A stretch of DNA of 64,000 nt from an uncultured Alphaproteobacteria bacterium (GTDB lineage: Bacteria; Pseudomonadota; Alphaproteobacteria; DATDPM01): the NCBI GenBank assembly GCA_963841995.1, contig CAWJEX010000003.1, positions 154,081-218,080 on the forward strand, given 5' to 3'. Shown piece after piece: positions 4,403 through 62,964 of the stretch (within the stretch, counting starts at the first letter, position 1; the number at the start of each line of letters is the position of its first letter). The notes beneath the pieces were generated by a model. It did not search any database and had not been told where the DNA came from. It saw only the letters and a program-made list of their open reading frames with translations. The position numbers and the translations under genes are program-made.

Positions 4403-5788
4403 ATGGATTTGTGGCGCACCAAAGCGCTGAACGCCGACGTTGTTCACGAGGGGCAGCTTCGGCGGGTGTTGGGCCCGGTCGATCTCACCGTGCTCGGCAT
4501 CGGGTGCATCATCGGCGCCGGCATTTTCGTTCTCACCGGACACGCGGCGGCGACGTCCGCCGGCCCGGGCATCGTTCTGTCCTATGTGATGTCGGGCTTG
4601 GCCTGCGCCTTCAGCGCGCTGGCCTATGCCGAGCTTGCCTCGGCGATCGGCGGCTGCGGCAGCGCCTATGGCTATGCCTATGCCGGCCTCGGCGAAATCA
4701 TGGCCTGGATCATCGGCTGGGATTTGCTTTTGGAATACGGCGTATCGGTGCCCACCGTGGCCTTGGGTTGGGCGAGCTATATGAACGACGCACTGACCAC
4801 GATGGGGCTGCCGATTCCCGACTCTCTCCTCCACAGCCCTTACGACCACGCCCAGGCCGGCATGGTGAATTTGCCCGCGGCGCTCATCATTCTGGCGCTG
4901 AGCGTCTTGCTCTGCATCGGAGTCAAGGTAAGCGCGCATTTCAACGCGCTGATGGTGACGGTGAAGCTCTGCGTGCTCGCCCTGTTCATCGCGATTGCGG
5001 TATTCGACGTCAATCCGGCGAATTGGCACCCTTTCATGCCCTTCGGCTGGGGCGGGGTGATGCAGGGTGCGGCCCTGATTTTCTTCGCCTATATCGGATT
5101 CGACGCGGTGTCGACCGCCGCCGAAGAAGCGCGCAATCCCCAGCGCGATCTGCCGATCGGAATTCTGGCCTCGCTCGCGATATGCACGGTGCTTTACATC
5201 GTCGTCTCGGGATTGCTGACCGGCATCGTTCCCTATTCGACGCTCAATGTGGCAAGCCCGGTGGCTGATGCGCTGATCCGCGCCGGGCACCGGATCGCGG
5301 GGGCTGCGATCGCGGTCGGAGCGATCGCGGGGCTCACGACCGTCATGCTCGTTCTCTATTACGGATTGACGCGAATCTTTTTGGCGATCGCCCGCGACGG
5401 ATTGCTGCCGCCGGTTTTTTCCGCGGTCAACAAAACAACGAAAACACCGATCCGCGTCATTCTGGTGAGCGGCGTGATCATGGCGTTGATCGCCGGCTTC
5501 ACCCCCATCGAGGGCGTGGCGCAGCTGGTGAATATCGGAACGCTCGCCGCCTTTGCATTGGTTTGCGCCGGCGTCATCGTGCTGCGCGCGACCGAGCCCG
5601 ACCTGCCTCGGCCGTTCAAGACCCCGTGGTCGCCGCTGATCCCGGTTCTCGGGATCGTCTTTTGTCTCTATCTGATCTACAGCCTGCCGGTCGTAACCTG
5701 GCTGCGCTTCGTGATCTGGATGGCGGTCGGCTTTGTCGTCTATTTCGGCTATTCGCATCGGAACAGCCTGCTCGCTCGGCAGTCCTAG
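4403..5788 (+). CDS. APC-family amino acid permease
   Basis: The 461-aa product has ~12 TM helices and the usual N-terminal 'LGPVDLTVLGIGCIIGAGIFVLTG' motif of amino-acid/polyamine transporters. Its TAG stop lies inside the MITE inverted repeat. Confidence 0.85.
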   Translation: MDLWRTKALNADVVHEGQLRRVLGPVDLTVLGIGCIIGAGIFVLTGHAAATSAGPGIVLSYVMSGLACAFSALAYAELASAIGGCGSAYGYAYAGLGEIMAWIIGWDLLLEYGVSVPTVALGWASYMNDALTTMGLPIPDSLLHSPYDHAQAGMVNLPAALIILALSVLLCIGVKVSAHFNALMVTVKLCVLALFIAIAVFDVNPANWHPFMPFGWGGVMQGAALIFFAYIGFDAVSTAAEEARNPQRDLPIGILASLAICTVLYIVVSGLLTGIVPYSTLNVASPVADALIRAGHRIAGAAIAVGAIAGLTTVMLVLYYGLTRIFLAIARDGLLPPVFSAVNKTTKTPIRVILVSGVIMALIAGFTPIEGVAQLVNIGTLAAFALVCAGVIVLRATEPDLPRPFKTPWSPLIPVLGIVFCLYLIYSLPVVTWLRFVIWMAVGFVVYFGYSHRNSLLARQS

Positions 5789-6013
5789 AGCATGATCTTG
5801 TCAGTTTGAATTGGCTGCGTTGCGCTTTTGGTGCGGCGATCCGCCAGGCGCGCCAAGCCCGCCAAGGCACAACCCCAAGGGCCCGGGTCTTTTGCCGCCG
5901 CGGGTTCGTCGAAGCGCTCGCCCGTAGTCCCTGCTACGCGCTTCGCGCTTCTCCTGCCCGGGGCGCAAAATACCTCCGGTGCAGCCGGTTCCAACTGACA
6001 AGATCATGCTCTA
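5786..6013 (+). mobile_element. MITE copy 1 (228 bp), with perfect 21-bp TIRs TAGAGCATGATCTTGTCAGTT and a GC-rich palindromic core
   Basis: The left end is tagagcatgatcttgtcagtt and the right end aactgacaagatcatgctcta. It is 228 bp, like copy 4 at 62045-62272. A TA dinucleotide sits at both element boundaries. Confidence 0.75.
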
Positions 6014-6055
6014 AGCCGCTATACGACGTCCGTCGGTCGCTTCATTGTCCGACCG

Positions 6056-6732
6056 TTAGATTTATCGAATACCGCCGTTCCGCCGCCTGCGGGAGAACAC
6101 GAGCCAGACGCCGCCAACTCCCAAAAAGAGCAGCCCCAACAGCGCGACCGGCCCAAGATTTCGTCTCCGGCGCGATGCGTTCGGCCACCGCGCTCGCAAC
6201 GGCGCCGGAAAACAGGATCGTGGGGGCCCAGAGGAAGGCCCACGCAACATTCGCCAGCCAAAAGCGCCCGCTGCATCCGCCTGATGCCGGCAGCCAGCGG
6301 GATCACCGCCCGCACCGGTCCGAAGAACCGTCCGATGAAGACGCTTTTCTGGCCATGCCGTTTGAAAAATGCGATCCCGCGCGGGATCAGCTCCGAATAT
6401 TTTGTGAACGGCCAAACGCGGTGCACCTCGTGACCGAATTGCCAGCCAATCCAGTAAGAAATGCCGTCGCCGAGGATGGCCCCGACGACGACGGCGATCA
6501 GAACTGGCCACACGGGCAGTATGCCCCGCGGCAACAGCGCTCCCGCCGCCAGCAGGATCACCGTGCCGGGGATCTGCAGACTGAGGAAGGCAAGCGATTT
6601 GCCAAACGCCGCCGCCAAGATGATCAGCGCCGCCCAAGCCGAGTACGTCGCGATGAAATCGGCCACGACATGAGTGGTGTGCTCCACGATTTGCCAGAAT
6701 AAACCAAGCGAATGGCGGCGACACCATCGCAT
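6056..6732 (-). CDS. DedA/SNARE-associated family membrane protein, with an apparent 1-nt frameshift at ~6266-6270
   Basis: The N-terminal ~150 aa are typical DedA ('GDGISYWIGWQFG', 'FGPVRAVIPLAAGI'). After 'RRMQR' the family continuation 'RFWLANVAWAFLWAPTILFSGAVAS...' is read in the adjacent frame and ends at 6056. The shift sits in a GGG run. Confidence 0.7.
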
Positions 6733-6872
6733 TTCGAGATTGCGTGTCGAATTTACAGGCGGCTTTGTCGTCTATTTAGGCTATTCGCATCGGAACAGCC
6801 TGCTCGCTCGGGCGGGCCAGCGCGGCCGATTTTCGAGTTGACGCGCGGCCCGCCCGGATAGCACCGCGGAAC

Positions 6873-7352: not shown

Positions 7353-8914
7353 CTAAACCTCCCCACGGATAAATCCGGGGGGTTCTGAAGAGCTGGCGGG
7401 CGATTTTCTCCCGCCTTTATCGGTTCTCCGCGGCCCTCCCGGATGAGCAATGCCCACCGGTACGCCGTCCGCAGCCTCGCCGATAACTATACCCTTCTTC
7501 GACGGGCGACCCGCTCCGACGGTCTTGCGGCCGTGGGGTGCCGGAAAACCGGACCCGCTTGCAGGTTGGTGTTCGCTTGACGCCGCCCGTCGCAGCAGCG
7601 GTTTCGCAGCCGGAAAGGCCAGTGTGGCCTGCCGGGCGTCAAGCGTGTTCAAGCTCACATGGCGAGCCAGAAAAGCGGAATAGAGATCGCGCTGTATTGC
7701 GCCGGAACCGTCGCCCAGGACATGCAGGCGCTGGCTCAACGGCTTTTTCGCGAAATCGCCGGTGGTGTGGTCGAACTGGCTAAGACAGGTCGTGCTGGTT
7801 TTGAACTCGATCAGCTGTCCGCCCGCGCGTTTGGTCTTGTATCGAAGAATGGCGAGAAAAGAACCGCAGCCGCGGACCTTAGTGCTGCGCCCGAAAGATT
7901 TCTGGAAGCCTGAATAAGACAGCTTCTCGGTCTTGATGGTCTTGCCTTGAGCTAGAATGCGGTTGGCAAGCTCGCCATGCGCCCTTTTGCGCTCAGCCGC
8001 CAGCCGGCGTTCGCGCTCGCGTCTTTTTGCGGCAAGGCGCTGATAGCGCTTCGAGCGGTTCCAGAGTTTACGTCCCTTCTTTGCTGTGCCGTTATCATTG
8101 AAGTTGTCTGGATTGGTCGCCCGCCTGGATCGGTCCATCGCGCGCTCGATGCGCCGCATTTGCTTCCAAGGCTGCTCGACGGTCGGGCAGAAAGATTCCA
8201 GCGTCGCATCGCGTCCGGATACCGCGGCAATCGTGCTGGGCCCGATATCCAGACCGACCACGCCATCACTTGCCGGATATTTGACGGTGCATCGCCTTCC
8301 TGGATCAGCTGCACCGACCAGCGGAGACTCCCGCGTATCTCGCGCCGGATCAGGCGGCAATACTTGGTATTGGTTTGCAACGCCTCGCCCTGCCATCGAT
8401 CGCCGGGTGCCAGCATTGCCGTTAGACGCAGTCCTGACCACTCCACAGCGCCGTCCCTGAACCGTATACCGGCCTTATTGGTCTTGCCTTCGACCGAATG
8501 AAGTTCACCAAAGTGCTTGAATCGCGGCCGCCCGCGTTTGCCAAAGGCGTAGTGCCGAACCGCCCGGAAGGCCCGTAGCGCCGCCTTCTGGGTTTCGTTG
8601 GACGACAGATGGCAGCCGACCCAGCAGTTGTTCTTGCAGGCGATCGCATAGCGGTCCGCCATCGAGGATTTGAAATCGAAGCGTTGGATAACCGATTTGA
8701 ACAGATCGGATCTGTCCTGGCCTTTGGGCATTGCCCGCGCCCGCCGCCAGTCGCGGCTTTCCCGCATCAAGGCTAGAACTCGCAAACATTCGCCCAGCAC
8801 CGCGTTGTAAATCTGACGGGCGGCGTCCAGGCGCACCGAGAGGTCGCGACCATCCCCCGCCGTCGTGTTTAACGGCAATTCCAGGACAAAGCTGGAAACG
8901 GAGGTGCTGGCCAT
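7353..8914 (-). pseudogene. tnpB: tnpB (IS605 OrfB, RuvC-like RNA-guided nuclease family), frameshifted near 8265-8290
   Basis: The N-terminal part ('FVLELPLNTTAGDGRDLSVRLDAARQIYNAVLGE') is in one frame. The RuvC-I motif 'VVGLDIGPSTIAAVSG', the zinc-finger region and 'RDLYSAFLARHV' are in another frame. Confidence 0.7.
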
Positions 8915-11774: not shown

Positions 11775-12317
11775 ATGGGGAAAATCCGCCTCAATGCGCG
11801 CGCCGCGGTCGGCTTGGCCGCCCTGCTCTCGATGCTGTCGGCCCAAGCCCGGGCGGCGAATAGTTGCGCCTTGCCGGACGAGCAGGCCGCGCTCGATACC
11901 CGGGTTCTTCAAACCGAATTGATCGTCGCCGCTCTGTCCTGCGGCACGAGCAGCCAATACAACGGCTTCGTGCAGAAATTCGAATCGGAGCTAGTCGCTC
12001 TCGGCGGCGTCTTCCGCAATTATTTTACCCGGATCTACGGACTGAACGGCGAGGATCGGATGGATCGGACCGTCACGCGACTGGCCAATATTGCGGAAGT
12101 CCGGAGCATGGGGCTGGGGCCGCAATATTGCGATTACGAAGCCCAGGTGTTCGCAACGCTCCAGGGAGTCGAGCCGGCGCAATTGGCGGCATTCGCCGCC
12201 GAGAATCCTTATGTAGGCGATCACGATATCCGGCCGTGCCCGGTAGCGGTTCGGGCGCAGAGCCCGAACGCGCCGGTCGCCGCAGCGCCCGACGCCGCGT
12301 CAGCCGATAAACCGTAG
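11775..12317 (+). CDS. hypothetical secreted protein
   Basis: It has a signal peptide ('AALLSMLSAQARA') and Cys pairs. No family was recognised. Confidence 0.45.
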   Translation: MGKIRLNARAAVGLAALLSMLSAQARAANSCALPDEQAALDTRVLQTELIVAALSCGTSSQYNGFVQKFESELVALGGVFRNYFTRIYGLNGEDRMDRTVTRLANIAEVRSMGLGPQYCDYEAQVFATLQGVEPAQLAAFAAENPYVGDHDIRPCPVAVRAQSPNAPVAAAPDAASADKP

Positions 12318-12341
12318 CGCCCGATCGTTCTTGAACGGAGT

Positions 12342-13095
12342 CTAGAGCCCCGTATTGGGATGGGATTCGAAGAGGCGAAAGGTCAGACGCTTCTTGCGCG
12401 GGCCATCGCCCTTTTGCCGGCGAACGAAGCGCCAAACGGCTGCCGGCGGAACATTCGAGCCAAATTCGTTCCGCGAGCTTTGCCGAAAGCCCGAGACGTG
12501 CGAGCAGGCGCTCCGGCACCGGCGAAACCGGGCCATAGGTGAACTGAATGAAAATTCCGTCGGCGTCCATAAGGTCGAAACATTGACGCAACAAAACGGT
12601 CTGCATGCGAGGCTTCATATTCAGCAACGGCAGGCCGGAAACGACCGCCGCGACTTTCTTGATCCCCGCCGCGCGAATCAAATGCTTTGCCCGCGTCGCG
12701 TCGCCGTGAATGATGTGGGACCCGGGAAAACGCTGGGCCAGCAAGCGGTAAAGGCCTTCGTCCCGCTCGACGACCACGAGATCGCGCGGGGCTATTCCTG
12801 AATTCAAAAGCGCCCGGGTAATGGATTCCGTCCCGCCGCCCAATTCGACGACAACGCCTTGCGGTTTGAATCGCAGGATTTCGGGGCGCAGGATTTCGGG
12901 ACCAAGCGCCGTCGCCATGGCCTTTGCCAGCGCCGCCCCGCTCGGAACGACGGCGCCGATACGCAACGGATTGCGCAACCACTTTCCGAACAGCATTTTT
13001 TCGTCTTCGACGTCCATCGCTTTCCTCGGCACCGCCAATGCAGTGTTCGCGAATTCAGGAGTGCTTTTTACCACCGCCGAGGCTTGGTGCGCCAC
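12342..13095 (-). CDS. class I SAM-dependent methyltransferase, phospholipid N-methyltransferase (PmtA)-like, with an apparent frameshift at ~12450-12458
   Basis: It has a GTG start. 'VVPSGAALAKAMA...VVELGGGTESITRALL...VVSGLPLLNMKP...FIQFTYGPVSPV' resembles Rhodobacter-type PmtA. The conserved C-terminus 'NVPPAAVWRFVRR' is in the adjacent frame and ends at 12342. The long ORF down to 12073 is read-through. Confidence 0.6.
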
Positions 13096-13105
13096 CTCAA
13101 TGCAT

Positions 13106-13419
13106 TAGAGCATGATCTTGTCAGTTGGAACCGGCTGCACCGGCGGTATTTTGCGCCGCGGGCAGGAGAAGCGCGAAGCGCGTAGCAGGGACTACGGGCG
13201 AGCGCTTCGACGAACCCGCGGCGGCAAAAGACCCGGGCCCTTGGGGTTGCGCCTTGGCGGGCGCCCGCGGCGTTGCGCCGTTCGGCCGATGCCCCACATC
13301 GCCCCCCGCGCTTTGCGCGCAAACGTTTGCCGGCAAGGCCGGCGGGCTTGGCGCGTCTGGCGGATCGCCGCACCAAAGGCGCAACGCAGCCGATTTCGAA
13401 CCGACAAGATCGTGCTCTA
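13106..13419 (-). mobile_element. MITE copy 2 (314 bp, inverted orientation, ~90-bp internal insertion, degenerate right TIR)
   Basis: It begins tagagcatgatcttgtcagtt and ends ccgacaagatcgtgctcta. The core is the reverse complement of the core in copies 1 and 4. Confidence 0.7.
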
Positions 13420-17755: not shown

Positions 17756-18028
17756 TAGAGCCTGATCTTGTCAGTTGGAACCGGCCGCGCCGGCGATATT
17801 TTGCGCCGCGGGCAGGAGAAGCCCGTAGCAGGGACTACGGGCGAGCGCTTCGACGAATCCCCGGCCGGCAAAAGACCGCCGCCCCTTGGGTTGCGCCTTA
17901 ATGGGCACCCGCGGCGTTGCGCCAAGCCCGCCAGCAAAGCCGGCGGGCTTGGCGCACTTGGCGCGCTTGGCGGATCGCCGCGCCAAAAGCGCAACGCAGC
18001 CGATTCGAACTGACAAAATCAGGCTCTA
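17756..18028 (-). mobile_element. MITE copy 3 (273 bp, inverted orientation, TIR variant TAGAGCCTGATCTTGTCAGTT)
   Basis: The ends are tagagcctgatcttgtcagtt and aactgacaaaatcaggctcta. The core is homologous to copy 2. Confidence 0.7.
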
Positions 18029-18424
18029 ATGGGACAAGGGTGACTCGCTCAAACTCTGGCTCGTACTCGAACCGCCGCCAAACCCCGATCCGCTGCCGCT
18101 TCCCGAAAGCGGCGCGGCGCTTAGACTTTGGCTAGTGCTCGAATTCCCACTGAATCCCGCCGACGGAGTCGAGCCGGGCTCGCCGGCGCCGCGCAGCGAA
18201 TCGCTCGTGCCGCCGTTGTCGAGTTCGCTGGGCGGACCGCTATCAAGGCTGGGATTGGACAAGGGTGCATCGCCGGGATTCGTCGGCGCAAAAGTGTCGC
18301 CGGTGTTCGATGTGCCGTCTTGCGCCAGAACCATCGGCGAAGCCGTGTCCGCTATCGCAGGCATTTGCGACAATAGCCCGGCGAGCACCAGGGGCAGCGC
18401 CGCCGCTGTGAATATCGATTTCAT
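18026..18424 (-). CDS. secreted Ser/Gly-rich low-complexity repeat protein
   Basis: It has a signal peptide and tandem units 'SGFGGGSSTSQSLSESPLS / AGFSGNSSTSQSLSAAPLS'. Its 3' end touches the MITE. Confidence 0.4.
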   Translation of the reverse strand: MKSIFTAAALPLVLAGLLSQMPAIADTASPMVLAQDGTSNTGDTFAPTNPGDAPLSNPSLDSGPPSELDNGGTSDSLRGAGEPGSTPSAGFSGNSSTSQSLSAAPLSGSGSGSGFGGGSSTSQSLSESPLSH

Positions 18425-30743: not shown

Positions 30744-30942
30744 CACTTAAATCACCGCCTTTCGTGGGCGGGGAACTCAAGCGATCGGGTCGCGAATTCT
30801 ACCCGCCCGACACATAACGCTGCCGGCCGCGTGGGTGCAAGGTCCAGCTTCGGCTGGGGCTTTCGGGTGGCCTGGCTAATGGCGTATATTTTACAAATGC
30901 TTTACAGACGCCGGAGGCTGTTGCTTAAGCTATTGAAATGAT

Positions 30943-31018
30943 TGGCGTCCCCTAGGGGAGTCGAACCCCTGTTCCCGCCGTGAGAGGGCGGTGTCCTGGG
31001 CCACTAGACGAAGGGGAC
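30943..31018 (-). tRNA. tRNA-Glu (anticodon CUC)
   Basis: The reverse complement is a 76-nt cloverleaf with a 3' CCA: GTCCCCTTCGTCTAGTGGCCCAGGACACCGCCCTCTCACGGCGGGAACAGGGGTTCGACTCCCCTAGGGGACGCCA. The anticodon stem is CCGCC/GGCGG and the loop CTCTCAC. Confidence 0.9.
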
Positions 31019-39184: not shown

Positions 39185-40348
39185 TTAAAGTCCTGGTTCA
39201 GTGGTCTCAAACGCCCAATCCAGCCAGGCCGGAAGGGCTGAGATATCCGCCAATTCCACGGTTCCGCCGGTCCAAACCCGAAGCCCCGGCGGGGCCGTCC
39301 GGTAGGCATTGATGTCGAAGGCAACACCTTCGGTCTCCAAGAGGCTCGAAATCGCTTTGGCCCGGGCGCGCTTTTGGTCTTCGCCCAACCCCTTCAGCCT
39401 TGAGCCTTCAAGACACATGGAGACAGGTGTTGTGGGCCGGATTTCCGGACGTTGCGGCAGCTGGGCGACCCAATCGCATTGGCTGATCCATTGGTCCAGG
39501 ACCGCGCGATTGGCCTTGGCCCTTTCGATCATCCCGCGCAAACCGCCGATCGATTCGATCCAGGCGAGCGAGAACAGTGCGTCCTCGACGCAAAGCATCG
39601 ACGGCGTGTTGATGACGCCGCCTTCCCACAACATCGGATCGAGCTGGTTGTGTTTTTTCAGCCGGAACAGCTTCGGCACCGGCCAGGCCGGCGTGTAACC
39701 CAGTAATCGTTCGATGGCACGCGGACCCAAGACCAGCATCCCGTGCTGAGCTTCGCCGCCCATCGCCTTCTGCCAGGAAAATGTCGCGGCATCGAGAAGG
39801 TCCCAGGGAATATCCGCCGCGAACACCGCCGCCGTCGCATCGCAGATCGTCAGGCCCTGCCGGGTGTCCGGAATCCAATCGCCGCCGGGAACGCAAACAC
39901 CGGCGGTCGTGCCGGTCCAGGGAAAAACCAGATCCCGCGCCGGATCCCAGCGCGACAGATCGGGCATTTCGCCATAGCAGGATTTGAGCACCCGCACATC
40001 GGGAAGCCGGAGCTCGTCGATGGCGTCCCGCGCCCATTCCTGGCCGAAATAGTCGAAAGCGAGAACGTCCAGCCCGCGCGGCCCCAGCAGATTCCACATC
40101 GCGGCTTCGATGGCGCCGGTGTCGGAGCCGGGCAGAATCGCGATCCGGTGGCTTTCCGGAATCCCGAGCAGCGCGCGGGCTTTCGTCAGCAGCTCCTGCA
40201 GCCGCGCCCGTCCCGCTTCCGAGCGGTGATAGCGCCCGGTCAGCGCCGCGGAAAGCTTGGATGCCTCCCAGCCCGGCGGCTTGGCACAAGGCCCGGAAGC
40301 GAAATGCGGATTTGCCGGCCGGACGGCGGGTTTCGGAGGGTGCGTCAT
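39185..40348 (-). CDS. serC: phosphoserine aminotransferase (SerC, short archaeal/alphaproteobacterial type)
   Basis: 'NPHFASGPCAKPPGW...SHRS..G...' matches the short-form SerC N-terminus. A class-V aminotransferase fold follows. Confidence 0.8.
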   Translation of the reverse strand: MTHPPKPAVRPANPHFASGPCAKPPGWEASKLSAALTGRYHRSEAGRARLQELLTKARALLGIPESHRIAILPGSDTGAIEAAMWNLLGPRGLDVLAFDYFGQEWARDAIDELRLPDVRVLKSCYGEMPDLSRWDPARDLVFPWTGTTAGVCVPGGDWIPDTRQGLTICDATAAVFAADIPWDLLDAATFSWQKAMGGEAQHGMLVLGPRAIERLLGYTPAWPVPKLFRLKKHNQLDPMLWEGGVINTPSMLCVEDALFSLAWIESIGGLRGMIERAKANRAVLDQWISQCDWVAQLPQRPEIRPTTPVSMCLEGSRLKGLGEDQKRARAKAISSLLETEGVAFDINAYRTAPPGLRVWTGGTVELADISALPAWLDWAFETTEPGL

Positions 40349-40533
40349 GGGGGGAATAACTTCGATGCGGGCGGTCAGAATATCAATGCCCATTCGAGCG
40401 CGGTAGGCGTGAGAATCCGGATCGTGGGCCGTGGATCAGTTTCGGCGCGATTGTGCGGCAACCGGCACGGTTTCAGAGTAAAATTTACAAGACTTCTCAA
40501 TTGTATCGTATTTCCAACGATGAGCGGGTTGCC

Positions 40534-41100
40534 ATGGCGCGTCTCCCGAAATCACGCAGGCCGGTCGCAATGAAAGATCTGCCCTTGTCCAAGGTCTACC
40601 AGCTGCTCGAACCGGGCCCGGTGGTTCTGCTGACCACCGCCCGTAAGGGCCGCGCCAATGTCATGACGATGTCCTGGCATATGATGGTCGACTTCGAGCC
40701 GCCGCTGGTCGCCTGCGTGGTCAGCGGCGCCAATCACAGCTTTGCCGCGTTGCAGGCGACCGGGGAGTGTGTGATCGCGATTCCGGCGCGGAAGCTGGCG
40801 CCGATTGTGGTCAACGTCGGCAACTCATCGGGTCGCGACATCGATAAGTTCGACGCGTTCGGTCTGACCCCGGCGCCGGCCGAGCGCGTGGCGCCGCCTC
40901 TGGTGGCAGAGTGTTTCGCCAATCTCGAATGCAAGGTGACGGACCCGCGCTTCGTCAACAAATACAATCTCTTCATCCTTGAGGTGCTTAAGGCCTGGAT
41001 CGATCCGGCGCAGAAGAATCCCAAAACCATCCACCATCACGGCTACGGCACGTTCGTCGTGGATGGCGAGACGATCAAGCTGAAATCCAAGATGCCGTGA
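40534..41100 (+). CDS. flavin reductase-like (FMN-binding split-barrel) family protein
   Basis: 'VVLLTTARKGRANVMTMSWHMMVDFEPPLVACVV' is the signature of the flavin reductase-like domain. Confidence 0.7.
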   Translation: MARLPKSRRPVAMKDLPLSKVYQLLEPGPVVLLTTARKGRANVMTMSWHMMVDFEPPLVACVVSGANHSFAALQATGECVIAIPARKLAPIVVNVGNSSGRDIDKFDAFGLTPAPAERVAPPLVAECFANLECKVTDPRFVNKYNLFILEVLKAWIDPAQKNPKTIHHHGYGTFVVDGETIKLKSKMP

Positions 41101-41359
41101 TGCGCGCCGTCAAAGACTTCGGGCCTCGCAAGGCGGATGAGCCTGCGCTTCGAACAAGGCCCGGAGGCGAAATGCGGATTAGCCGGCCGGACGGCGGGTT
41201 TTGGTGGAGTGGTCATGCAGCGAAGATATCTGAGTGATAGTCAGATTATCACCGCGTTTATGATAGCTGTAGGTGTCAGAGAGATGACGGATTTGACCAA
41301 AGGTGGACCTAGCCAACTCAACGTCTTAACGCAATTGAAACGCAACCTAACAACGAAAC

Positions 41360-41997: not shown

Positions 41998-42079
41998 ATT
42001 ACGCCAAATCTCAAACCGCCCCACCGCCAGACCTCGATCCCGCTTGACCCACCCTTCCTCCCGTTCCACCATGCCGGTT

Positions 42080-44085
<2,006 letters not shown>

Positions 44086-60624: not shown

Positions 60625-60820
60625 TTCATGAATGGAGCGGCCGTTGTAGCATGAACGTCAGAAGCAGGTGGAGCCGCGGGGCCGTTGGCCATTGTAACCC
60701 TTGGAGCCTGCCTCAGCAGGTGGGCGCCATATGTCCAGAACCAAGGTTCCAGCAGGGACGGCTCCCTTTGTAGAAGTGTTGGCCCCGGGGAAAACTGAGG
60801 CCTGACGCACCGCGCAGCCC
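60625..60820 (-). ncRNA. ssrS: 6S RNA (SsrS), inferred. Ends are approximate.
   Basis: A non-coding gap lies between zapA and ygfA, the conserved position of ssrS (it is cotranscribed with ygfA in E. coli). The region has long-range complementary arms (cgtcag...ctgacg, gcctcag...ctgaggc, ccccggggcc...ggccccgcgg) typical of the 6S closing stems. The only ORF there (60658..60861) has an implausible composition. Confidence 0.5.
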
Positions 60821-60835
60821 CACCCGTATTTGACT

Positions 60836-61630: not shown

Positions 61631-62047
61631 ATGGCCCGCGCAATTGTCATTCATTCCTTGGAACACGCCCGCGCTGCGCTCGCCGCTGCCGTGCACCTCC
61701 GCGTCGCGGTCACGCTATGGAGCGCGGAGGGAGCGGCCGGCAATGCCGGGCCGTTGTGGTTCGTCGAGTTGATCAAAGCGGCGGAAGAAGAATTTCCGTC
61801 AGCGACGTTCGCGGCGGTTCTCGATTGCGGCGATGCGCCGGGATACGCGCTCGCGGCTTTGCGCGCCGGGTGCCGTGCGATTCGTTTTAACGGCAAGCCT
61901 GCCGTCGCCGCCAAGATCAAGGCGATCGCCCGTCAATATGGCGCTGTGCTGCATACGGGAAAGCCGGCGAATTCCGGCAAGGCCCTCGATCTGGCCGGCA
62001 AATCCGATCCCCTCACCGCTTGCCGCCAATGGCTGAGCAAGCGCTAG
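61631..62047 (+). CDS. hypothetical protein; its TAG stop is supplied by the MITE TIR
   Basis: The 138-aa ORF ends '...SKR' + tag, where tag is the first 3 nt of the MITE. Confidence 0.4.
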   Translation: MARAIVIHSLEHARAALAAAVHLRVAVTLWSAEGAAGNAGPLWFVELIKAAEEEFPSATFAAVLDCGDAPGYALAALRAGCRAIRFNGKPAVAAKIKAIARQYGAVLHTGKPANSGKALDLAGKSDPLTACRQWLSKR

Positions 62048-62272
62048 AGCATGATCTTGTCACTTCGAATCGACTGCGTTGCGCCTTTGGTGCGGCGATC
62101 CGCTAGGCGCGCCAAGCCCGCCACGGCGCAACCCAAAGGGCCCGGGTCTTTTGCCGCCGCGGGTTCGTCGGAGCGCTCGCCCGTAGTCCCTGCTACGCGC
62201 TTCGCGCTTCTCCTGCCCGCGGCGCAAAATACCGCCGGTGCAGCCGGTTCCAACTGACAAGATCATGCTCTA
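62045..62272 (+). mobile_element. MITE copy 4 (228 bp, same orientation as copy 1 and ~95% identical to it)
   Basis: tagagcatgatcttgtcac...gttccaactgacaagatcatgctcta. Confidence 0.75.
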
Positions 62273-62319: not shown

Positions 62320-62964
62320 TTGATTTTGTCCCGTCTTTATCTCATCACTCCCGAAAGACTCGATCTGGCGGATTTTGCCGATCCGCTTTCCGCGGCCCTC
62401 GATGCCGGCGAGGTGGCCGCCGTGCAGCTTCGCCTCAAGAACTACGATGACAAGTTTATCCGCCATGCCGTCTCGATTCTCCGTCCCATCGTCCAGAAAC
62501 AAAATGCCGCGTTCATCTTGAACGACCGCGCCGATCTTGCCGCCGAGACCGGATGCGACGGCGTTCATATCGGCCAGCAGGATGGCTCCTATGCCGAGGC
62601 GCGCGACGCGGTCGGGCCGGATTCGATCGTCGGCGTCACTTGTCACGACTCGCGCCATCTGGCGATCGAGGCCGCCGAACAGGGAGCCGATTACGTCGCT
62701 TTCGGCGCCTTTTTCCCGACCCAGACCAAGATCGCCAGCGGCCATCCGACACCGGATATCCTGGAATGGTGGACAGACGTGATGGTGGTGCCTTGCGTGG
62801 CCATCGGCGGCATCACGCCGGAAAATGTGGCGCAGGTGATCGCCGCCGATTTCATCGCCGTCTGCTCGGGCATCTGGAATCATCCCCAAGGTCCCGCTGC
62901 GGCGGTGAAAGCTTACCTTTCGGCCATCGAGCGCGCCGTCCACGATCAAGGCATCACCGGCTAG
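62320..62964 (+). CDS. thiE: thiamine-phosphate synthase ThiE
   Basis: 'LYLITPE...AVQLRLKN...VGVTCHDS...GGITPENV' follows the ThiE fold. Confidence 0.85.
   Translation: MILSRLYLITPERLDLADFADPLSAALDAGEVAAVQLRLKNYDDKFIRHAVSILRPIVQKQNAAFILNDRADLAAETGCDGVHIGQQDGSYAEARDAVGPDSIVGVTCHDSRHLAIEAAEQGADYVAFGAFFPTQTKIASGHPTPDILEWWTDVMVVPCVAIGGITPENVAQVIAADFIAVCSGIWNHPQGPAAAVKAYLSAIERAVHDQGITG

Follow-up and report, generated by a model that had tools for sequence, protein, structure and literature searches.

The IS630/Tc1-mariner elements are recognised by their insertion into the dinucleotide TA and the duplication of this TA; for IS630, the preferred TA is the one in CTAG (PMC2170065). RUP of Streptococcus pneumoniae is the classic bacterial MITE of the TA-duplicating type and is mobilised by IS630-Spn1 (PMC2229807). 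In the same species, the BOX repeat covers the extreme 3' end of 36 genes and encodes their stop codon, and strong evidence of truncation was not seen in alignments of orthologues (PMC3049150). The Correia/NEMIS elements of Neisseria are abundant small TIR elements that are located near ORFs or fused with them, and their hairpins, when transcribed, are substrates for processing by RNase III (PMC2229807). IS5 is described as preferring the tetranucleotide CTAA/TTAG (PMC11677980, PMC5493358).

The window analysed here, a stretch of 64,000 nucleotides from the genome of an uncultured Alphaproteobacteria bacterium, contains four copies of a small element that can be compared with each of these systems. 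The element resembles the IS630/Tc1-mariner MITEs in being short and non-coding, in its TIRs and in the 2-bp TA duplication, which is seen here by way of empty sites. It also shares with IS630 the preference for a longer context around the TA; however, this context is CTAG for IS630 and C-TA-A(TGG/GCC) for the present element. The Correia/NEMIS elements, which duplicate TA as well, are likewise small TIR elements next to ORFs, but their sequence is unrelated, and some Correia forms fuse open frames to genes, whereas no gene is extended or shortened here. RUP differs in that it is reported to prefer IS elements and not stop codons. The outcome is the same as for BOX, namely a stop codon from a repeat without truncation. 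BOX is, however, modular and of unrelated sequence, the passages concerned report no TA-duplication logic for it (PMC3049150), and the unchanged stop position is proven here base by base from the empty sites.

Structure and distribution of the element

The core of the TIR, GAGCATGATCTTGTCA, has eight matches in the window (0.43 are expected), and these form four inverted pairs. The four copies delimited by the pairs are described here with one flanking TA counted on each side. Copy 1 is at 5786-6013 (228 nt), copy 2 at 13106-13419 (314 nt), copy 3 at 17756-18028 (273 nt), and copy 4 at 62045-62272 (228 nt); the lengths in the window thus range from 228 to 314 nt. Copy 2 is the full-length form, and copy 3 is oriented in the same way. 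Copies 1 and 4 are 95% identical to each other. Both are inverted relative to copy 2, and their interior is shorter by about 78-86 nt, copy 1 being a deletion derivative. The TIRs are ~33 nt long, start with GAGCATGATCTTGTCAGTT, and are 85-97% identical across copies and arms. The predicted fold has an energy of -131.9 kcal/mol for copy 1 (z -9.6) and -191.8 kcal/mol for copy 2 (z -9.1).

The ORFs inside the copies are 56-102 aa long and overlap one another on both strands of GC-rich sequence. They are below the size of a DDE transposase; the absence of an internal transposase was judged from this ORF length. The element is short, multicopy and bounded by TIRs, has no internal transposase gene and, as shown below, duplicates its target site, in keeping with the definition of a MITE. 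Rfam covariance models were run across the window, and no family matched any of the four copies. The only Rfam matches in the window were a 6S RNA at 60667-60823 (minus strand, 79 bits), a TPP riboswitch at 42076-42209 (plus strand), directly upstream of thiC (42265-44085), and one tRNA gene at 30946-31018 (minus strand). The window also contains a 78-nt direct repeat (40279-40356 and 41147-41224, 83% identical) that flanks a flavin-reductase-like gene at 40453-41100 and is unrelated to the MITE.

A genome scan with 21 nt of the TIR found the element in only two MAGs besides the window, both related to it, where further copies are present. A second assembly, GCA_049280315.1, is 99.8% identical to the window over 8.3 kb and shows the same features. 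The permease described below is 100% identical to an NCBI protein annotated for an Alphaproteobacteria MAG. No transposase gene was found within the window. The genome scan for the TIR returned MITE copies and remnants only, and no autonomous element. BLASTN of the MITE against 72,556 plasmids (PLSDB) gave only weak GC-rich chance matches, none of them on the TIRs. The metagenome scan with a 16-nt TIR core gave 120 loci, all of them isolated chance matches that lacked a second, paired TIR and in which the identity did not extend further, and the TIR string had no match in the literature. Two loci with one TIR each, L002 and L007, were considered as full-length elements and rejected: they are remnants of 36 nt and about 68 nt, with no transposase ORF. 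The element thus very probably represents a new, lineage-restricted, non-autonomous MITE family of a known kind, which duplicates TA on insertion.

Stop codons formed by the element ends

The gene of an amino-acid permease of the APC family (461 aa; 4403-5788, plus strand) ends ...ARQS followed by TAG at 5786-5788. Similarly, a conserved 138-aa gene with weak class-II aldolase similarity (61631-62047, plus strand) ends ...SKR followed by TAG at 62045-62047. In both genes this TAG is bases 1-3 of TAGAGCATGATCTTGTCA. The first-pass annotation had stated that the TIR supplies the stop codons of these two genes, and the junction sequences bear this out. A third case had been missed. The minus-strand ORF at 18026-18424, which encodes a secreted low-complexity protein of 132 aa, has as its stop the reverse complement of 18026-18028, that is, the outer TAG at the other (right) end of copy 3. 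This means that three of the four copies in the window (1, 3 and 4) coincide precisely with a real gene's stop codon. Copy 2 is located between divergent genes, a methyltransferase-like ORF at 12073-13095 (minus strand) and a DUF520/YajQ gene from 13517, and overlaps no stop codon that belongs to a real gene. Copy 4 lies between the 138-aa gene and thiE (62320-62964), within a likely operon.

Empty sites and the target-site duplication

All four copies in the window are flanked by TA on both sides, as are the copies at L001, L004 and L006. Excision in silico of the element together with one TA gave aag cgc TAA tgg for copy 4, cag tcc TAA gcc, in frame, for copy 1, and ccc cat TAG agg on the gene strand for copy 3.

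The empty sites of copies 3 and 4 are present in orthologous loci. There are 180 homologues in the conserved family of the 138-aa protein; the C-terminus is ...WLSKR in each of the seven nearest (82-94% identity). The MITE-free loci L130-L135 read ...agcaagcgc TAA tggaggccctcgttttgc, which corresponds to the flanks of copy 4 joined via one TA, and from the stop onward these loci read TAA-tggaggccc. The 132-aa protein is also conserved, and its homologues end ...SPLSH. At locus L142, where no MITE is present, the sequence is ...tcccat TAG aggg...gcgccga...aaattcggccggcttcgaat; it joins the right flank of copy 3 through the TA to the left flank. The empty sites carry a single TA, in agreement with the earlier proposal that the element targets TA. 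Comparison of the filled and empty sites of copies 3 (L142) and 4 (L130-L135) shows that the TA on either side results from duplication of a 2-bp target site. Of the TAG that had been assigned to nucleotides 1-3 of the element, only the G is therefore derived from the element; the TA is duplicated host sequence. It should be mentioned that, as C is the terminal base of the element, duplications of 3 bp (CTA) and 2 bp (TA) are formally indistinguishable; TA is favoured, since it leaves perfectly symmetric TIRs.

Insertion of copy 4 changed TAA to TAG at the same codon, insertion of copy 3 kept the TAG, and both proteins are unchanged. This bears on the other proposal of the first-pass annotation, according to which the element inserted inside the 3' ends of ORFs, the TAG of the TIR acted as a premature stop, the native C-termini were lost, and a longer tail of the permease is kept at 6760-6840. 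The stop codons do sit on the element end, as this proposal demands. However, the comparison of C-termini with MITE-free orthologues, which had itself been suggested as a check, showed that the 138-aa and 132-aa proteins end at the identical residue without the MITE (L130-L135 and L142, respectively), where the corresponding codon is a native TAA or TAG. Trimming is thus refuted for these two genes, and the part of the earlier statement that stands is that the insertion re-creates the stop.

L142 contains, at about 2860-2900, a tandem duplication of the 14 nt that surround the stop (gtcccattagaggg), and two TAGs consequently follow each other at a distance of 14 nt at the site of the MITE in the window. 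Three copies in a related MAG (L003 259-530, L005 7700-7971 and L008 3066-3304) have one imperfect flank each (TG, GA or AA) and are located away from gene ends. These flanks could be mutated duplications or imprecise insertions; imprecise insertions have reportedly been seen in vitro with ISY100.

The 3' end of the permease gene

The exact empty junction of copy 1 (31 specified bases) had no match in the metagenome scan. The sole close relative, locus L006 of MAG JBGOXX01 (92% nucleotide identity), likewise has an element at the permease TA. In L006 a 314-nt form (4494-4807) occupies the TA of the permease stop in the orientation opposite to that of the 228-nt copy 1. The opposite orientations fit an independent second insertion at a preferred site, or else a flip of the element between its TIRs.

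The nearest MITE-free orthologues of the permease end ...ARQPA, ...AKQGA and ...AKQAA. The tail ARQS looks native, because the rebuilt site gives an in-frame TAA and the tails of the orthologues resemble ARQS. Judging from these sequences, the native stop at the site of copy 1 would have been TAA, and the C-terminus of the permease would be unchanged. The TAG now present would consist of the target TA and the first base of the TIR.

The duplicated permease 3' end that had been noticed before was confirmed as a 52-nt direct repeat, 5728-5779 and 6760-6811, the two copies of which are 98% identical and on the plus strand. The first copy is the authentic 3' end of the permease gene. The second is a piece of the permease 3' end that stands alone, is joined to unrelated sequence and reads into the tail ...ARAGQRGRFSS, the frame ending at 6841. 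The presence at 6760-6841 of such a fragment, with a different and longer tail, seems to favour trimming of the permease, and 6758-6840 had been taken for its longer original tail. However, this tail is like that of no orthologue, and the remainder of the permease gene is absent there; the three orthologue tails resemble ARQS and none resembles ARAGQRGRFSS. Furthermore, the repeat breaks off 6 nt ahead of the MITE and not at its border, and removal of copy 1 with one TA restores the in-frame stop. The rearrangement that produced the repeat is no evidence for a trimmed tail. Trimming is very unlikely for the permease, and as an account of the whole family it is extremely improbable.

The two repeat copies bracket copy 1 and a DedA/VTT-domain gene (6019-6732, minus strand), which is apparently frameshifted. 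The Pfam match of this gene covers residues 54-154 of frame A, and a hydrophobic, membrane-like C-terminus is found in the overlapping frame 6062-6727. The frameshifted state is likewise present in an independent assembly (L009). The genes downstream of the permease are different in every relative compared (five orthologous contexts), and the sequence after either copy of the 52-nt repeat had no match among these five contexts. The region 5728-6841 looks like a rearrangement hotspot. As a guess, the repeat might have originated by single-crossover integration of a circle of ~1 kb. Beside this region, two ORFs of different frame overlap at 7353-8914 (minus strand). The one that encodes the C-terminus weakly matches models of the RNA-guided endonuclease TnpB (E 8.5e-12; 45 bits, well short of the cut-off of 100) and has no Pfam match. 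This is probably a decayed TnpB-like gene and is unrelated to the MITE.

Bias toward stop codons

When the window and the two related MAGs are taken together, 7 of 11 independent MITE sites are on the stop codon of real-looking genes. In addition to the three genes of the window, these are a LeuA/CimA-like synthase (L001 4301-4344, a 44-nt mini-copy consisting of two TIR halves), a SHOCT-domain protein (L004), PyrF (L007 6264-6331, the about 68-nt one-ended remnant), and a lipoprotein-like ORF (L002 7123-7158, the 36-nt one-ended remnant). The permease, the LeuA/CimA-like synthase, PyrF and the SHOCT-domain protein were accepted as real genes by Pfam, and the 138-aa and 132-aa genes by their conserved homologues. 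The lipoprotein-like ORF, with a signal and a lipobox-like N-terminus and no Pfam match, only looks like a real gene. The long frames next to the copies of L001 (to the right), L003 and L008 did not qualify as stop-codon cases: their Arg/His-rich composition marks them as antisense artefacts, and they were not counted.

Gene calls for the TA statistics were made with a rough codon-usage caller (63 genes, 75% of the window), which replaced an earlier GC3-based caller that covered only 59% of the window. After removal of the MITE interiors, the window contains 1189 TA sites, of which 712 are in genes, about 440 are intergenic, and 38 are in TAA or TAG stops. According to the same rough calls, stop usage in the window is TGA 25, TAG 19 and TAA 19, and 3 of the 19 TAGs are formed by the MITE; TAG seems frequent for a GC-rich alphaproteobacterium.

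The bias might be explained by plain TA targeting and purifying selection only, with no extended target preference. Selection must indeed act, for insertions within genes would be lost, and the regenerated stop makes stop-codon sites neutral. By the rough gene calls, however, stops account for ~8% of the non-coding TA sites but for 3 of 4 insertions in the window and 7 of 11 at all sites. Under plain TA targeting, the probability of at least 3 of 4 is 0.002 for the window. The probability of at least 7 of 11, with the related MAGs included, is 5e-6, or 3e-4 if the intergenic TAs are overcounted twofold.

Probable preference for an extended target

The sites share more than the TA. When suitably oriented, nine of the ten sites read C-TA-A and then TGG (copies 3 and 4, L001), TGC (copy 2) or GCC (copy 1, which is the L006 site, L003 and L004). 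The GCC class comprises three independent sites, as copy 1 and L006 count as one. The MITE-removed window has 12 CTAATG/CTAAGC sites (complements included) among its 1189 TA sites, and all four insertions of the window fall within these 12. The chance of this is about 1e-8, for a motif that was derived from 9-10 sites, in part the same as those used in the test, and that is seen independently in L001, L003 and L004. At the 7-mer level, four of the six target sites in the window are occupied, as against none of the >1100 other TA sites. One CTAATGG, at 30877 and some 70 nt away from the tRNA gene, is unoccupied.

The preferred target therefore seems to be longer than TA, namely 5'-C-TA-A followed by TGG, TGC or GCC. 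This motif is found mostly at stop codons because it contains TAA and the genome is 61% GC. Among the ten non-coding CTAATG/CTAAGC sites, five are stop codons, and given the extended target, three stops in four insertions are unremarkable (P = 0.31). The bias toward stop codons would thus follow from the length of the target, and selection could add to it. Plain TA targeting is improbable: in addition to the counts given above, C-TA-A-TGG or C-TA-A-GCC is common to independent sites, and the permease TA is filled in two lineages by oppositely oriented copies.

Relationship to IS630 and IS5

The target of IS5 is YTAR, often CTAA, and the ends of IS5-family elements often start with GAG or GGA. 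The start of the present TIR resembles such ends. In addition, the preference for CTAA/TTAG is common to IS5 and the MITE of the window. IS5 duplicates 4 bp, in contrast to the net 2 bp (at most an ambiguous CTA) observed here. At the junctions of the MITE the sequence is C-TA-G...C-TA-A, and a single CTAA is present at the empty site. Because the CTAG on the left differs from the CTAA on the right, a 4-bp duplication of YTAR is excluded. An origin of the MITE from the IS5 family (IS427-like) is at most possible. Insertion at TA and the 2-bp duplication of TA are found here as in the IS630/Tc1-mariner elements. The element thus behaves like an IS630-type MITE, its family membership being one of mechanism only, and by analogy a transposase of the IS630/Tc1-mariner type may be the mobiliser.

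Discussion

The observations can be combined into the following model. The MITEs (228-314 bp) would insert at a TA, duplicating it, within the longer target C-TA-A(TGG/TGC/GCC). As this target contains TAA (TTAG on the opposite strand), it would be found largely in stop codons and spacers of a densely coding genome with 61% GC. Both ends of the element read TA and then G inward, and a TAA or TAG stop would consequently be rebuilt as an in-frame TAG. As this holds whichever side of the element the gene is on, such an insertion would leave the protein unchanged, be close to neutral and persist. We hold this explanation, that is, a TA-duplicating MITE family with an extended target and neutral rebuilding of stops, with good confidence as a whole.

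Alternatively, retention of the copies at gene ends might reflect a benefit that they confer there. As a hairpin in the 3' UTR, the element might stabilise the mRNA, be processed, or attenuate read-through, and such mRNA roles of 3' hairpins have been proposed for Correia/NEMIS and other bacterial repeats. A very stable structure is predicted (z about -9), the truncated remnants L002 and L007 retain the end adjoining the stop codon, and copy 4 is upstream of thiE within the likely operon. However, no T-tract terminator or promoter-like site is found in or around copy 4, the copies have no Rfam match, and copy 2 and three copies of a related MAG are located away from gene ends. This makes a useful hairpin very improbable as the reason for the positions of the copies.

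A further reading goes beyond near-neutral insertion. The element and its unseen transposase may have evolved to use stop codons as a dedicated safe haven, with a target motif built on TAA/TAG and the terminal G kept because it restores a stop codon that is hit, whatever the strand. We consider this conceivable but unlikely. If it were true, the preferred sites would be near saturation (four of six in the window), and repeated independent insertions at the same stop would be part of the pattern, as with the permease stop, which is filled in opposite orientations in two lineages. It would then be a niche strategy comparable to that of insertion sequences specialised on REP sequences or tRNA genes.

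Similar cases are known from the pneumococcal BOX repeat, and MITEs at stop codons open no new question. For annotation, a stop codon overlapped by the end of a repeat need not signal a truncated gene; where the element duplicates TA, its flanks are sufficient to reconstruct the native stop. For the biology of mobile elements, the locus provides an example at the level of single bases of how a target motif and the first base of a TIR hide an insertion from the protein. It shows why such elements accumulate at gene ends in GC-rich genomes.
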